A DNA stretch of 13,768 nucleotides from Escherichia coli. Lineage in GTDB: Bacteria > Pseudomonadota > Gammaproteobacteria > Enterobacterales > Enterobacteriaceae. The DNA is taken from assembly GCF_003334335.1 (NCBI RefSeq), contig NZ_QOWQ01000061.1. One strand, written 5' to 3'. Shown here in pieces: positions 1,781 to 13,768 of this stretch (position 1 is the first letter of the stretch; each line of letters begins with the position of its first letter). A program made the translations under genes and the position numbers. The notes beneath the pieces are model-generated. The model was not told where the DNA came from. It worked only from the letters and a program-made list of their open reading frames with translations, and did not search any database.

Positions 1781-2983
1781 ATGGCAGTATTGACGGATAC
1801 GAAAGCAAGACATATCAAACCTGATGACAAACCATTGCCCCATGGGGGAATTACCGGACTGACCCTTCATCCTTCTTCAGTAAAGGGGCGGGGGAAATGG
1901 GTTTTTCGTTATGTAAGTCCGGTGACACAAAAAAGACGTAATGCTGGATTGGGAACTTACCCAGAGGTCAGTATTGCTGAAGCTGCACGTACTGCCCGGA
2001 TAATGCGAGAGCAACTTGCTGCAGGTGATGATCCTCTGGAGATTAAAAAGGCTGAATCTGAGAAAGTCGCTATCCCAACATTTGCCGATGCAGCCAGGCG
2101 TGTACATGCAGAACTGTCTCCTGGATGGGAAAATCCAAAGCATGTAAGGCAGTGGTTATCGACGCTTGAGAATTACGCGTTTCCTCAACTGGGAGCAAAA
2201 ACGCTGGATTCGATTACGGCTGCGGACGTGGCAGAAACACTGCGTCCAGTCTGGTTAACCTTGTCAGAAACGGCAAGCCGGGTTAAACAGCGCATTCATG
2301 TTGTTATGCAGTGGGGATGGGCGCACGGTTTTTGTGTAGCAAATCCTGTTGATGTGGTTGACCATTTGCTTCCTCAGCAGACAAGAGGACGTGATGAACA
2401 CCAACCCGCAATGCCCTGGAGGCAGTTACCGCTTTTTGTGGCGACCAGTGTGTATACCGATGAACCTTATAATGTTACCCGCGCACTGTTATTAATGGTG
2501 ATACTTACAGCAACTCGCTCGGGCGAAGCCAGGGGAATGCGCTGGGCTGAAATTGATTTTCATAAGCGGGTATGGACTATACCTGCAGAAAGAATGAAAG
2601 CTAGGCTACAGCATCGTGTTCCTTTATCCCGGCAGGCTATTTACATTCTGGAAAATATACGTGGCCTGCATGATGAACTGGTGTTCCCTTCACCCAGAAA
2701 GCAGCAGATCCTTTCCGATATGGTGTTGACAAGTTTTCTGCGTAAAAAGAAAGCCGTCAGTGACATTCCGGGGCGAGTTGCCACGGCACATGGTTTTCGC
2801 TCAACATTCAGGGACTGGTGTAGCGAACAGGGGTATTCGCGGGATCTGGCGGAAAGGGCGCTCGCTCATACGCTGAAAAATAAGGTTGAGGCGGCATATC
2901 ATCGTACTGATCTACTGGAGCAGCGTGTACCGATGATGCAGGCATGGGCGGATTATGTGATGTCTCAAATTGTGAATAAATAA
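1781..2983 (+). CDS. int: Tyrosine recombinase, P4-family (CP4-57 IntA-like) integrase
   Basis: 400-aa ORF. N-terminus has the typical P4-type integrase arm-binding region (LTDTKARHIKPDDKP...GKWVFRY...). C-terminus carries the catalytic signature (TRSGEARGMRWAEID, HGFRSTFRDW, catalytic Tyr in AAYHRTD). Family assignment from motif recognition, not a search. Confidence 0.93.
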   Translation: MAVLTDTKARHIKPDDKPLPHGGITGLTLHPSSVKGRGKWVFRYVSPVTQKRRNAGLGTYPEVSIAEAARTARIMREQLAAGDDPLEIKKAESEKVAIPTFADAARRVHAELSPGWENPKHVRQWLSTLENYAFPQLGAKTLDSITAADVAETLRPVWLTLSETASRVKQRIHVVMQWGWAHGFCVANPVDVVDHLLPQQTRGRDEHQPAMPWRQLPLFVATSVYTDEPYNVTRALLLMVILTATRSGEARGMRWAEIDFHKRVWTIPAERMKARLQHRVPLSRQAIYILENIRGLHDELVFPSPRKQQILSDMVLTSFLRKKKAVSDIPGRVATAHGFRSTFRDWCSEQGYSRDLAERALAHTLKNKVEAAYHRTDLLEQRVPMMQAWADYVMSQIVNK

Positions 2984-3114
2984 TAGTGAAAATGTATATT
3001 GTACGATCATGATTTGATATGTGATCGTAGCAGTAGTAATTAAGAAACCGCTTTTATGTCAAATGTATTGAGCTGATAATTATCAGATCGTCAGGAAAGC
3101 GTATTTTGATTAAC

Positions 3115-3142
3115 AGGGGATTACTTAACAATCCCCTTTTTA
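3115..3142 (+). terminator. Rho-independent terminator-like hairpin in the int / 605-aa gene convergent intergenic region
   Basis: Stem AGGGGATT (3115-3122) / AATCCCCT (3130-3137), 7-nt loop, followed by TTTTT (3137-3141). Lies between the convergent int (+) and 605-aa (-) genes. Confidence 0.5.
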
Positions 3143-3169
3143 TAAAAAATAATTTGCCTGTTTAACTCT

Positions 3170-4987
3170 TCACTCCTGCTGAGACTGAATTATTCCTAGT
3201 GCGTCATAAATCAGTCTTCTGCGTAGTTTATTGTTTTTATCTGCACCATATAACATAAATATATTTTCAACTTTTTCTTCAGGTGTTCTGAGATAATGGA
3301 TAAGAAAGGTTATCATTCCAACACAATGGAATAAAGTGAATCCATCAAACAGGCTTATCAGGTTTCCTTTTTTTTCCCGTGTTGTAAGTATTTTTTCGCG
3401 GGTAAGAATATTTGCCAGTTCATGGGGGGCTGATATGTTTCTGCTGTCTATAATGTCATTTATTTTACCAAGGGCTATATCAACTTCCTGTAATAGGTTA
3501 TTTATCATAGCTGAGTGAATGTTATTGGTTTCATGTTCCTGACAGTTTATGAACTTATAAATCATTGAGTTATACAGAAATATTACTCTTCCTAATAAAT
3601 ATGTGTTTGTGTCATTTTGAAGACAGGACTCTGGGTATTCGTGATCCAGTGAAATAAGGTTAATGGACTCGCCCTGATAAGTCATAAAATAATTGATGTC
3701 ATTTAATAATGCTCGGATATTTACATGATTTTTACTGAATTTTATTTTAAATGCTATCTTTAGTATAGCAAACGCGGCAATGATAAATCCAAAAGGTAAT
3801 TTCTCATAGTTCAGTTTATTGATGGTGCGATGAACACTTTCAGTCTTTCCTGAAGTAAGTTGTCTCAAACAGTTAACAAATTCTGTATAGCCATTTAAGA
3901 CATAATGGCATGAAGAATCTTTTAAAGAGTTTTCTATGTTTTGTAATGTGACGCCGTTGTTCAATGTATAAATGTAACCGCCAAAGACAATGTTTTCAAT
4001 CTCAACGACACAATTTATTGTTTTTTGTTCAGGATAAAGATAAATATCAGAAATACTATAGTCTCGTATTGCGTCAATGGCATCCCACGATAATGCACTG
4101 TCAATTTTCAGTGTATAAAATGGTGAGTTCTCATTAGGAAAGTAATATATGTATTTGTTCAGTATATTCATTACATCTATTGGGTTGGTTAAATATAATA
4201 ACTGGCATTCATATTCTGAAACTTCTCTTTCGCTTATCAGCATTTTATATAAAGTTGCCAGGGTGCTTGTTAATGAAGTTCGTCTTTCGAAAGCCAGTAA
4301 TATAGTGAGATAATAACATGCAACCTGAACTTTATCTAAGTCAGAAATTATTTTTTCCTTGTCTTCATTACTTAAATAAAGCAGATGTTTACAGGTTTCT
4401 TTGCATGTGTTGATAGTTGCGATAAGTTTTGTTTTTCCTGGTGTACTGTTTTTGCGAATATTACGAATGAATTCATATACGCCATCAAAGATATCTTTGA
4501 AATGCGCATTCGCTGGCGTGTATCCGGATAAACATAACTTAACGTAATTTCGCAGATATGTCCTTGCAGCATGATATATATCATCCTCATTATCCGGTAT
4601 CTGAGTGAGAAAAGAATGAATATGATAGTAAAATGCCATCTCATTATCCGGGCGATATGTGTTCCTGATGTCGAGTGCGAGAATCATTGGTACAATGTCA
4701 TTAAAATATTTTTGTTTTATTATTTGATGTGTTTTGTCTGTAAAAACAGAATAGTGCATTAGCTTAACATAGAGATCTTCATATCTCCTAAATATAACTT
4801 TTCGTTGTTCTTTACTCAATACTTGTTCTTTATCAATAATGTTTATTAATTCATCAAACATGTCGCCCAGTGAATGTTGATGTGAGGAAAAATTTTTAAT
4901 ATTTCGGATGTCACGGCTATTCTGGTTTTTAGCCAGAACACCAAAACATGAAAAGACATCATACATTATAGTGATAAAATTATACAT
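3170..4987 (-). CDS. Hypothetical protein, 605 aa, no recognisable family; AT-rich orphan cargo gene
   Basis: Long uninterrupted minus-strand ORF. Strong SD (AAGGAGA) 5 nt upstream of the ATG at 4987 (minus-strand sense). Codon usage markedly more AT-rich than int or the 1083-aa gene (by eye). One predicted hydrophobic helix (KLPFGFIIAAFAILKIAFKI). I recognise no catalytic motif. Confidence 0.8.
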   Translation of the reverse strand: MYNFITIMYDVFSCFGVLAKNQNSRDIRNIKNFSSHQHSLGDMFDELINIIDKEQVLSKEQRKVIFRRYEDLYVKLMHYSVFTDKTHQIIKQKYFNDIVPMILALDIRNTYRPDNEMAFYYHIHSFLTQIPDNEDDIYHAARTYLRNYVKLCLSGYTPANAHFKDIFDGVYEFIRNIRKNSTPGKTKLIATINTCKETCKHLLYLSNEDKEKIISDLDKVQVACYYLTILLAFERRTSLTSTLATLYKMLISEREVSEYECQLLYLTNPIDVMNILNKYIYYFPNENSPFYTLKIDSALSWDAIDAIRDYSISDIYLYPEQKTINCVVEIENIVFGGYIYTLNNGVTLQNIENSLKDSSCHYVLNGYTEFVNCLRQLTSGKTESVHRTINKLNYEKLPFGFIIAAFAILKIAFKIKFSKNHVNIRALLNDINYFMTYQGESINLISLDHEYPESCLQNDTNTYLLGRVIFLYNSMIYKFINCQEHETNNIHSAMINNLLQEVDIALGKINDIIDSRNISAPHELANILTREKILTTREKKGNLISLFDGFTLFHCVGMITFLIHYLRTPEEKVENIFMLYGADKNNKLRRRLIYDALGIIQSQQE

Positions 4988-5127
4988 AACATTCTCCTTT
5001 TATTGCACTATATAAAATTTTAACATTATATCATTTTGCTTTTCTGTTAACTGGTTTTCATTTTTGAATCAATATTTTCTGAACAGGGTAATAGTACACG
5101 TATTAACAGATTATGTCAGAAGGCCCC

Positions 5128-5890
5128 GGTGATGCCTTCTGACGATAGATTAATGTTGTATTCTATTGGTATCTGGAGACCATATGGCAACAGTTACAGT
5201 ATATTCTCCCCGCTGTAATTCCTATAAAGTGTACCGTTATGATCACAGCACCTCAGATCATGAGCGTTTCCAGTGCTAATCCTGCAAACGTGTATTTCAA
5301 CTGAATTACATCTACGAAACCCGAAAACCAGGCATTAAAGAGCAAATTGTTGAAATGGTTCATAACGGAGCCGGGGTTCGCGATAGCTCCAGAACGCTGA
5401 AGGTGGATATCAACACCGTCATTCTCACTTTAAAAAACGCTCACCACGTAAAGTAACCATATCTCCAGCCGCCAGTGTCGATGTGGCACTTATCTGTGAA
5501 CTTGATGAACAATGGAGTTTTGTCGAAAACAAAGCTCGTCAGCAGTGGCACTGGTACGCGTATAAGACCAAAGCTGACGGTGTGCTGGCTTACACTTTTG
5601 GTCCTCGCACTGATGAAACATGCCGTGAGTTGCCGGAATTCCTGAAGCCATTCTCCGCAGGCATGATAACCAGAGACAACCGGAGCAGTTATACCAGAGA
5701 AATGCCACAGGATAAGCATCTTGTCGGCAAGATATTTACCCGGCGCATTGAGCGCAACAATCTGACACTTCGTACTCACATCAAACGACCTGCCCGGAAA
5801 ACGATTTGCTTTTTACGCTCCCTGGAAATTCACGAAAAGCCATTGGTTCATTTATCGAAAACACATGTACTACTGACAGGAGTCATTACC
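5128..5890 (+). mobile_element. IS1-family insertion sequence, about 763 bp, probably inactive
   Basis: Left end GGTGATGCC... at 5128 and right end ...GGAGTCATTACC at 5879-5890 match IS1 terminal inverted repeats. Internal insA/insB-like ORFs with the conserved A6C frameshift motif (5432-5438). Element length matches IS1 (768 bp). No clean 9-bp target-site duplication seen. Confidence 0.8.
5184..5456 (+). pseudogene. insA: IS1-family insA with an in-frame premature stop
   Basis: Translation MATVTVYSPRCNSYKVYRYDHSTSDHERFQC*SCKRVFQLNYIYETRKPGIKEQIVEMVHNGAGVRDSSRTLKVDINTVILTLKNAHHVK aligns to IS1 InsA, but an in-frame TAA at 5277-5279 falls inside the zinc-finger region. Confidence 0.75.
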
Positions 5891-5920
5891 AGGGCCTCTT
5901 TTGCTGTTTTTTTGCCATGA
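5483..5920 (+). CDS. insB: IS1-family InsB-like transposase segment; reading frame runs past the right inverted repeat
   Basis: Translation (ICELDEQWSFVENKARQQWHWYAYK...TRRIERNNLTLRTHIKRPARK...) aligns to IS1 InsB ([26 protein letters not shown]...[21 protein letters not shown]). Frame is -1 relative to insA, as in IS1. The ORF continues 30 nt beyond the IS end at 5890, so the native stop appears lost. Confidence 0.7.
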   Translation: MALICELDEQWSFVENKARQQWHWYAYKTKADGVLAYTFGPRTDETCRELPEFLKPFSAGMITRDNRSSYTREMPQDKHLVGKIFTRRIERNNLTLRTHIKRPARKTICFLRSLEIHEKPLVHLSKTHVLLTGVITRASFAVFLP

Positions 5921-6086
5921 ATGATAATGAGAATCGACAGCGATAAGGGAAAAGTAAAATAACACTAATGCTGTTGTTTTCTATCATATTGATTTTTAAT
6001 TATTTATTGTCTTTTTTCTCAACCCATTTTTTTACGCAGACAAATTTACCCGGGGAATACAAACTGTAACGACAGTTCACCACACT

Positions 6087-6395
6087 ATGGGGGATAAAAT
6101 GCCAGATCAATCCGGACACTGCAGGACTCCTTCACGCATCTTACGGATGCCTGAACTGAGCCAATTGTTAGGTATATCTCGTTCGACAATTTACGAAAAA
6201 ATGAATCCGTTATCGAAATACTACGATGCAACCTTCCCCAGGCCGGTACGTCTTGGTAGTGGTTCTGTGGGCTGGCGTTCATCAGCTATTGACGAATGGC
6301 TTACTTTACATACTGTACCTGCCAGATCAGCAGTCAAAGGTGTTAATGACGAAGTGAGACATACGCTTTCTTCAGATATGACCATGAGCAGATAA
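6087..6395 (+). CDS. alpA: AlpA-family (prophage CP4-57 regulatory protein-like) DNA-binding regulator / excisionase-like protein
   Basis: Motifs ILRMPELSQLLGISRSTIYEKMNP and YDATFPRPVRLGSGSVGWRSSAIDEWL match the AlpA helix-turn-helix family. The likely true start is the ATG at 6099, preceded by GGGGGA. Confidence 0.85.
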   Translation: MGDKMPDQSGHCRTPSRILRMPELSQLLGISRSTIYEKMNPLSKYYDATFPRPVRLGSGSVGWRSSAIDEWLTLHTVPARSAVKGVNDEVRHTLSSDMTMSR

Positions 6396-6957: not shown

Positions 6958-7310
6958 GTCTGAATAGCAGCTATTTTCGCTATTGTAGCGGGATTTGCTG
7001 CTATTTTACTAACCCATTAATGAAAAGAGAGGCTTTTATGTGCTTACTTGCACCAGAAAATCCTTATCCGATATATGCACTACCACCGCTGGTGAGAAAT
7101 GCAATAATTGAAACTCAAAAAAATACACAGGCACCTTTGGCTATGGTGGCAACATCCGCATTAACAGCGATCTCAATTGCCTGTCAGAATCAGATTGACG
7201 TATGCAGACCTGGAAATTTACATGGGCCTGTTAATCTTTACTCTCTGATTCTGGCTGATTCCGGTGAAAGGAAAACGACCGTGGATAAAGTGTTTATGAA
7301 AGCATTTTAT
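6958..7310 (+). repeat. Direct repeat copy 2: the intact promoter-proximal and 5' region of the yfjI-like gene
   Basis: Partner of copy 1 at 6478-6830; this copy is continuous with the long ORF starting at 7020/7038. Confidence 0.7.
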
Positions 7311-8177
7311 CTCAGGGATGAAGCCCTGGCGGAAGAATACGCGAAACTGGTTGAGAATTACAGTACAGAAAAGGAAATATGGGAGCAAAAACAAAAAGCG
7401 CTGGAATCAAAATTTCATAAAGAGATTCGTGCCGGTAAAGATTACAAGGCAACAGAATCAGAGCTTGAAACGCATCTGAATAAACCTCCTGTTCCGCCGC
7501 AGATACGTCGAACAATTTTTAATGAGACAACGATAGAGGGAATGTTAAAATATTACTCCGATAGCAATCGCTCTTTTGCTCTTGTATCCAGTGAAGGGGG
7601 GGTAATTTTTGACAGCCGGGCCATGAGTAAACTGGGAATTATTAACACTTTGTGGGATGGAGGTTCTCTTTTCATCGACAGGAAATCATCTCCCGGAATT
7701 AATTTGAAGGAGCCAAGACTGACGATATCGGTGATGATTCAGCCTGATGTTTACCACAAAGGTTTTTGTACGCGAAAAAAAGAAATTGTGAAAACGTCAG
7801 GACATCATGCAAGGTTTTTGATGTGTCAACCAACATCAACGCAGGGGACAAGGATAATAACCGGAGATAATTATTCATCACAGTATCAGGATTTGTTTGA
7901 AGAGAGGATCAATGAGCTTATTGATGAAAGTCTGGCGATGAGTGGTGAACGACGTTGCCTTCACTTTTCTCCTCAGGCTGCCAGAATCTGGACGGATTAT
8001 TACAATGATGTGGAATCGAAGCTGGGGGGATTGGGGCCTTTAAGACATTGCCGGGAATATGCTGCTAAAAATGCAGAGTATATGGCAAGACTGGCAGGAC
8101 TTATTTACCATTCGAGCGGGGGAGATTTCCCCTTACACTGCAGAAATGGCGAGAGAATTAGCAATATGGTACGGTAA
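7020..8177 (+). CDS. yfjI-like (DUF3987-type, putative replication-associated) protein, N-terminal 385 aa; frame interrupted near the 3' end
   Basis: Long ORF in the position occupied by yfjI after alpA in CP4-57-type islands. SD-like AAGAGAGG precedes the internal ATG at 7038, the more likely start. The reading frame continues in another frame (8059-8463) after a G5 tract. DUF3987 assignment is from genomic context and memory, not a search. Confidence 0.7.
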   Translation: MKREAFMCLLAPENPYPIYALPPLVRNAIIETQKNTQAPLAMVATSALTAISIACQNQIDVCRPGNLHGPVNLYSLILADSGERKTTVDKVFMKAFYLRDEALAEEYAKLVENYSTEKEIWEQKQKALESKFHKEIRAGKDYKATESELETHLNKPPVPPQIRRTIFNETTIEGMLKYYSDSNRSFALVSSEGGVIFDSRAMSKLGIINTLWDGGSLFIDRKSSPGINLKEPRLTISVMIQPDVYHKGFCTRKKEIVKTSGHHARFLMCQPTSTQGTRIITGDNYSSQYQDLFEERINELIDESLAMSGERRCLHFSPQAARIWTDYYNDVESKLGGLGPLRHCREYAAKNAEYMARLAGLIYHSSGGDFPLHCRNGERISNMVR

Positions 8178-8463
8178 TGAGTATGTGCGGTTGTCTAATC
8201 CGTTAACTTTTGACAACTCTGCCCTGACCGTACCTGTGCGACTCATTCCAGAGGAGCTTGAACTTTTCAACTGGATAAAAAGCTATTGTATTGAGAAGGG
8301 GATCCTCTGTATGAAAAAAAATGACATTTTACAGCGTGGTCCGAACCGTTTCCGGAAAAAGGATAAAATCAACTGGTTACTGGATTTACTGTATGAACAA
8401 AACAGAGTTGTACCGGTTATTGAGGGAAAAACGTTGTGTGTCGCACCTAACTTTGACCTCTGA
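8059..8463 (+). CDS. C-terminal segment of the yfjI-like protein in a shifted frame
   Basis: Overlaps the previous ORF by 119 nt in a different frame; no independent RBS. Combined length (about 480 aa) is what I expect for a yfjI-family protein. Confidence 0.55.
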   Translation: MLLKMQSIWQDWQDLFTIRAGEISPYTAEMARELAIWYGNEYVRLSNPLTFDNSALTVPVRLIPEELELFNWIKSYCIEKGILCMKKNDILQRGPNRFRKKDKINWLLDLLYEQNRVVPVIEGKTLCVAPNFDL

Positions 8464-8486: not shown

Positions 8487-8517
8487 TAGTCTCCTCTGCT
8501 ACTTGCGGAGGAGACTA
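8487..8517 (+). terminator. Perfect 10-bp stem-loop immediately downstream of the yfjI-like gene; possible terminator or protein-binding hairpin
   Basis: TAGTCTCCTC (8487-8496) pairs with GAGGAGACTA (8508-8517), 11-nt loop. Downstream sequence is only moderately T-rich, so it is not a canonical intrinsic terminator. Confidence 0.35.

Positions 8518-10497: not shown

Positions 10498-13768
<3,271 letters not shown>

Follow-up and report, generated by a model that had tools for sequence, protein, structure and literature searches.

A dead IS1-family insertion sequence fixed between an orphan gene and alpA in a common Escherichia coli island

The locus examined here raises the question of what lies between a 605-amino-acid orphan gene and alpA in the window (the whole 13,768-nucleotide stretch of Escherichia coli DNA that was analysed), whether it can still move, how it came to be there and whether it does anything for its two neighbours. 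The segment at positions 5128–5890 is a 763-bp insertion sequence (IS) of the IS1 family, and it is dead. An earlier note made from the sequence alone had already placed an IS1-family element between these genes; the distances it gave are correct as well, the start of the 605-aa gene (4987) being 140 bp from the element and that of alpA (6087 or 6099) 196 or 208 bp.

Four intact members of the family were used for alignment, namely those from a Klebsiella plasmid, Enterobacter mori, Pantoea and Shigella dysenteriae (IS1N). Similarity to all four runs from end to end and breaks off precisely at 5128 and 5890, so that the terminal inverted repeats described in the earlier note do coincide with the termini of IS1-family elements. 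The 5' end reads GGTGATGCC... and the 3' end ...GGAGTCATTACC, the first bases of the segment being GGTGATGCCTTCTGAC and the last CTGACAGGAGTCATTACC. The repeats themselves are imperfect, of about 23 bp and starting with GGT(G/A)ATG, and they align with the termini of the four intact members and of IS1A, in which left and right repeats agree at 18 of 23 positions as against 15 of 23 here. The length of the element falls inside the class of about 740–800 bp that is characteristic of the family, and insA is followed by insB' in the −1 frame. A conceptual repair of the product, with the nonsense codon of insA read as Lys, a −1 shift introduced at A6C and the two absent bases put back, yielded 231 amino acids scoring 210.6 bits on the NCBIfam model NF033558 "IS1 family transposase" (transpos_IS1; cut-off 100) and matching the Pfam domains Zn_ribbon_InsA, HTH_Tnp_IS1 and DDE_Tnp_IS1 (PF03811, PF12759 and PF03400) over their full length, the last from position 1 to 131 of 131. 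Membership of the IS1 family is secure on the strength of this score and of the three full-length domains. The model for the zinc domain, NF050000, gave 24.7 with the repaired product, which is under its cut-off of 28 and fits the loss of a zinc-finger cysteine. The features of the element and of its left flank are collected in Table 1.

Table 1. Coordinates of the IS1-family element, its lesions and its left-junction features in the window.
Feature	Start	End	Strand	Remarks
Whole IS1-family element, non-functional	5128	5890	+	End-to-end alignment with intact elements; PGAP: IS1 family transposase pseudogene
Left inverted repeat (IRL), GGTGATGCCTTCTGACGATAGAT	5128	5150	+	15/23 positions match IRR
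Right inverted repeat (IRR), minus-strand reading GGTAATGACTCCTGTCAGTAGTA	5868	5890	-	15/23 positions match IRL
insA pseudogene, 91 codons, natural stop TAA 5454–5456	5184	5456	+	Translation; 65% identical to Klebsiella InsA
Codon 8, TCT (Ser) for first zinc-finger Cys	5205	5207	+	TGT/TGC in all intact relatives and in divergent allele L005
In-frame TAA, insA codon 32	5277	5279	+	CGC, CGG, CGT or AAG in relatives
A6C programmed −1 frameshift motif, AAAAAAC	5432	5438	+	Intact in the window allele; TATAAAAC in the 96–97% allele group
insB' frame (DDE domain), up to ancestral stop TGA 5874–5876, now out of frame	5435	5876	+	PGAP pseudogene CDS ends at the same TGA
CGG (Arg) for conserved Trp	5681	5683	+	Stretch aligned by eye with IS1 TDGW; TGG in divergent allele and reconstructed ancestor
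A4 run, 1-bp deletion from A5 of 4/4 intact relatives	5835	5838	+	Common to all 32 fossil alleles
Second A-run, 1-bp deletion against intact relatives	5858	5861	+	Probably shared; divergent allele short of one further base
Flank arm GTCAGAAGGC of perfect 10-bp inverted repeat	5115	5124	+	Partner is IRL positions 7–16 (5134–5143)
Candidate decayed target-site duplication, left copy AAGGCCCC	5120	5127	.	Right copy AGGGCCTC at 5891–5898, 6/8 match

Translation from the insA start codon, ATG 5184, places the in-frame TAA that the earlier note had reported at codon 32. The TAA is genuine: hundreds of independent assemblies carry it, as do 60 of the 63 full-length copies examined, which rules out a sequencing error, and the remaining three copies represent a divergent allele with CGC at this codon. 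The A6C motif, also reported as intact, is indeed so in the window allele, where it is contained in TTTAAAAAAC (5429–5438) as a putative frameshift signal; of the four aligned intact relatives, three (Klebsiella, Pantoea and IS1N) have the motif at the equivalent place. As to insB, the frame had been described as open through the right end with its stop lost. The first part of this is correct, the −1 frame running on past the right end as far as TGA 5918–5920; the stop, however, is not lost but survives as the TGA at the end of the insB' frame, the counterpart of the TAA or TGA with which insB ends in the intact relatives, and is out of register because of the two single-base deletions in A-runs. 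All four intact relatives have CA(C/T)GAAAAAG and AT(C/T)GAAAA(A/G)(C/T)A at these places, where the window has CACGAAAAG and ATCGAAAACA, respectively. The deletions alter only the extreme C-terminus of the transposase, replacing the last ~12 residues. In the stretch equivalent by eye to TDGW of IS1, Klebsiella has SDDW and the window RDNR. With a nonsense codon, a lost zinc-finger cysteine, two frameshifting deletions and not one intact copy among the 63, the element is no active insertion sequence, and what had been proposed as a probable fossil proves to be one, present once per island and drifting neutrally among its alleles.

The 63 full-length copies represent 32 distinct alleles, which fall into three groups. 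Besides the window type there is a 96–97% type (IHE3034, EcN, PapRG), with a 2-bp insertion in insA and the mutated A6C motif given in Table 1, and an 88–90% type (L005–L007), which has kept Cys8 and has CGC (Arg) at codon 32, together with a 13-bp insA deletion of its own and a degraded IRL. The changes in the IRL of the last group form a cluster, GG-GATGACTTCCGGGGGCAG, that accompanies the 13-bp deletion in L005:4083–4890 and likewise in L006 and L007. The extra 1-bp deletion of L005–L007 at the second A-run brings their loss over both runs to three bases, and this should return the ancestral TGA to frame.

Since the A5-to-A4 deletion is common to all 32 fossil alleles, it, alone or together with the second A-run deletion, is the oldest detectable lesion, and we infer that it was the inactivating event. 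The TAA, by the same kind of comparison, would be a late lesion of one lineage and not a founding one, because the divergent allele is without it and yet shares the first A-run deletion. All three adjacent bases differ between CGC and TAA in a lineage that is only ~6% diverged overall, which suggests one multi-nucleotide mutation. An ancestor reconstructed by parsimony, polarised with the four intact relatives as outgroups and leaving 11 ambiguous columns, has insA and A6C intact and insB open apart from the two A-run deletions. Among the fossil alleles pN/pS is 0.5–0.9, and the substitutions between the window and L005 are spread over the three codon positions as 19/21/22; compared with the intact Klebsiella relative, pN/pS falls to 0.27 and most of the substitutions are at third positions (37/36/105). 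It follows from this contrast that the element diverged from its relatives while functional and has drifted neutrally since. The drift goes back beyond the deepest island split sampled.

The closest intact transposases to the repaired product in a protein search are those of Enterobacter mori (73% amino acid identity) and IS1N (69%); the repaired product of the ancestor reaches 83% identity with the closest intact transposase on record, that of E. mori. No close living relative was found in plasmids, where the best full-length nucleotide identity is 73.4% with the element and 76.5% with the ancestor. As no intact transposase is more than 73% identical, no living copy of the lineage of this element is on record. 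Identity with IS1N itself was considered and is ruled out by the 69% figure; the literature on IS1N concerns Shigella and Klebsiella, and NCBI annotation uses the name for an iso-IS1 of S. dysenteriae and Klebsiella. IS1N and the elements from Enterobacter mori, Pantoea and the Klebsiella plasmid are nevertheless built much like the fossil: they are 761–766 bp long compared with 763 bp, and they share with it the termini GGT(G/A)ATG...CAT(T/C)ACC, the three Pfam domains, the homologous stop position and, with the exception of the E. mori copy, the insA/insB' layout with the A6C motif. They differ from it in nucleotide sequence (73–76% identity), and in that the fossil is dead and single-copy. 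A further difference lies in the inverted repeats, which carry CTGAC (IRL) and CTGTC (IRR) where the corresponding bases of the intact relatives are CAAT or TAAT and then a C or T; the presence of CTG(A/T)C in both repeats suggests a trait of the once-active ancestor rather than decay. The element may be the sole surviving trace of an IS1N-like lineage without a living copy on record, and an active form could be rebuilt by restoring the two single-base deletions in the reconstructed ancestor.

Canonical IS1 is carried by many E. coli strains. Its representative IS1A, from E. coli K-12, has a like architecture, and the first 8 bp of its IRL and the last 12 bp of its right end are identical to those of the element; the two are otherwise distant, with 56% nucleotide and 37% amino acid identity and with matches at 13 of 23 (IRL) and 14 of 23 (IRR) positions. 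K-12 carries the canonical IS1. The fossil has never been mobilised in the 5426 complete E. coli genomes searched.

The same element was found at the same site in 1034 of these 5426 genomes. Its identity to the window element is at least 99% in 803 records and 95–99% in 233, and the number of copies per genome has a median of 1 and a maximum of 2. A 400-bp query made by joining the two flanks gave 2168 flank places against 1088 element places, in the identical 1034 genomes; hence each island copy has a single element, and the element lies nowhere else. An empty site was not found in the 5426 E. coli genomes by either near or distant modes of searching, the flanks being always split by the element, nor among the most divergent homologues of the orphan gene, all of which show a 1.1-kb gap indicating the element. 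Searches of the GTDB species representatives with the exact right-flank pattern and with AlpA relatives returned nothing close, the left-flank pattern had no match in viral contigs, and a gapped pattern for the empty junction had none in metagenome contigs, as against 57 matches for the occupied junction used as a control.

The feature is already known, being annotated as a pseudogene in public genomes, and the lesion history is added detail. RefSeq/PGAP labels it "IS1 family transposase; frameshifted; internal stop", a 100% identical feature is present in O157:H7, O26, O103 and other strains, and in one record (P0096) the insB fragment is labelled 'putative IS1nuxi transposase'. The locus is the integrase end of a P4-like island adjoining ycdU, and the same module occurs in ExPEC strains, e.g. 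IHE3034 and a Nissle (EcN) culture. We take the O157:H7 island to be SpLE1/OI-48, with OI-43 as its duplicate, and the ExPEC ones to be serX islands; the annotation supports these names. The IS pseudogenes of SpLE1/OI-43/OI-48 and of the ExPEC serX islands are the same feature as that of the window and show no structural difference from it. Site-specific excision of OI-43 and OI-48 is reported at frequencies of about 2e-3 and 2e-4 per cell, respectively (PMC3064760), and since the islands still excise, the insertion has not disabled their recombination module.

Some observations were made on the surroundings of the element. No tRNA gene was detected by ARAGORN or Rfam between ycdU and the integrase gene (1415–1780), so the window holds only the integrase-side attachment junction and not an intact serX. 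The 605-aa gene (3170–4987, minus strand) lies beside the integrase gene and has 32% G+C. It had no Pfam, NCBIfam or PADLOC match, its homologues were found only in E. coli islands of the same family, at identities of at least 91%, and on these searches it is taken to be a true orphan. P4-like elements often carry defence cargo at an integrase-adjacent position. At the other side, an open reading frame running from 10498 to 13749 on the plus strand, to the end of the window, matches the PADLOC model MkoA (PDLC03921) with 1218 bits, so that a Mokosh anti-phage system seems to be part of the island copy in the window; in O157:H7 the equivalent downstream portion of the island has the primase gene of a TOTE system. 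The gene yfjI (DUF3987; region 7020–8463) is split in the window into open reading frames at 7020–8177 and 8059–8463, while in O157:H7 and IHE3034 it is intact and encodes 477 amino acids; the alignment length difference is 8 bp. When positions 1781–6395 of the window were compared with L002 and L003, the divergence between island lineages was found to rise at the left end of the IS. The integrase gene, the orphan gene and the left intergenic region are 99.1–100% identical, with synonymous differences of 0.35–1.8% in the two genes, whereas the IS and the right intergenic region are 95.4–97% identical and differ by 3–4.6% between allele groups. Such a step calls for recombination or another cause beside drift, and it probably reflects recombination mosaicism between island variants.

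The history that best accommodates the element is that an IS1N-like IS inserted once between the 605-aa orphan gene and alpA, died early and has since drifted as a passenger of the island, and this account is very probably correct. The insertion would have been a single event, into a divergent intergenic region of ~340 bp in the common ancestor of the P4-like island family. Activity would have been lost early, the likeliest first lesions being deletions by slippage in homopolymer runs close to the insB 3' end, and the neutral drift that followed would have left separate lesions in each island lineage: Cys8Ser, the CGC-to-TAA change at codon 32 and the Trp-to-Arg change in the DDE region in that of the window, the 2-bp insertion and the loss of A6C in the B2-type alleles, and the 13-bp deletion in the most divergent allele. 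In its present state the element makes no transposase and does not move, and would be no more than a 763-bp spacer between the promoter regions of two genes. IS1 makes target duplications of 8 or 9 bp. The earlier note saw no clean duplication, and there is none: the best 8-bp candidate agrees at six of eight positions, and the 9-bp register at only three of nine. Simple insertion is for this reason unproven, and an IS-mediated rearrangement (for example, a deletion next to the element, cointegrate formation or recombination involving two copies) may instead have joined an AT-rich orphan module to the alpA side. Such an event would account for the lack of a clean duplication, and it would suit an orphan gene whose G+C content is 32%, when the window has 42% and the element 45%, and which is without homologues beyond these E. 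coli islands, as well as the rise of divergence between lineages that coincides exactly with the left IS end. The six-of-eight match, however, abuts both ends and has a chance of only ~0.004 per register, which makes a decayed 8-bp duplication plausible; the divergence step is missing against allele L005, from which both flanks have diverged, and neither a second copy nor a partner junction was present in any genome searched. A rearrangement is thus unlikely, and single insertion followed by decay is the reading retained here. The left junction has one more peculiarity, the perfect 10-bp inverted repeat that the earlier note had described as straddling it, which is readily confirmed from the sequence and whose right arm is GCCTTCTGAC. 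Two perfect 10-bp inverted repeats with a short loop are present in the window where 0.36 would be expected, the other one being at 8487–8496 / 8508–8517 with the arm TAGTCTCCTC; the number expected to straddle an IS end is only ~7e-4. This low expectation, together with perfect arms, a loop of 9 nt and a stability of −16.8 kcal/mol as RNA, could speak for a functional hairpin, for instance a barrier to transcription or translation shielding the element or the orphan gene. The right arm is, however, altered at four of its ten positions in L005–L007, the left arm showing no change to compensate, and a T-run is absent downstream on both strands, for which reasons a functional hairpin is extremely unlikely; the terminator scan does not report the repeat, whose position upstream of the candidate orphan-gene promoter would also keep it out of that transcript. 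The choice of a target beside a sequence resembling the element's own end would be the simplest account of the repeat, and the early IS1 literature reported target choice near sequences like the ends of IS1. The left flank was also considered as the remnant of a second IS end in a tandem junction, and rejected, as only the 10-nt arm matches and the next 6 nt do not.

A dead element may still have been co-opted by its neighbours, either through a derepressed promoter in IRL reading into alpA or by insulating alpA from the promoter of the orphan gene. The IS1 promoter is known to be repressed by InsA, which in the window is cut short at codon 32; insA runs in the same direction as alpA, the insertion lies inside a divergent promoter region, and the element has been kept in every island copy examined. 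Ancestry alone, however, accounts for this retention, and between island lineages no other segment of the region has diverged as far as the element (96.1–96.7% identity compared with 99.1–99.9% for the integrase and orphan genes), whose changes are scattered over its full length. A consensus scan for promoters and terminators yielded nothing in excess of shuffled expectation; it found no promoter-like site on the plus strand inside the element and none facing outward, the four sites found in the region comparing with 4.2 expected from shuffling, and the best candidate picked by eye in IRL agrees at 8 of 12 hexamer positions. Plausible native promoters, moreover, persist in both flanks, the consensus matches being at 5119 to 5091 on the minus strand for the orphan gene and at 5959–5987 on the plus strand for alpA. 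Co-option in either form is accordingly very improbable. The narrower proposal that the loss of InsA lets a weak, unrepressed IRL promoter read through to alpA and set its basal level is decidedly improbable too; if true, the level of alpA would set the spontaneous excision frequency of islands of the SpLE1/OI-43/48 type. No known RNA family was matched when the whole window was scanned with Rfam, and as far as the comparisons reach there appears to be no sign of a present function.

The element is, then, an ordinary IS1-family pseudogene, annotated before now and fixed in an island that is common in E. coli. The process it documents is ordinary too: once inserted in an island, an IS dies and undergoes neutral decay, carried along as the island spreads through E. 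coli. The 145-aa "transposase" open reading frame at 5483–5920, called in many assemblies, is to be treated as a pseudogene fragment. The lesion series provides a set of neutral markers for tracing the lineages of the island family, leading from the shared A-run deletion to the TAA with Cys8Ser and on to the 2-bp insertion with the loss of A6C, and having the 13-bp deletion as a separate branch.
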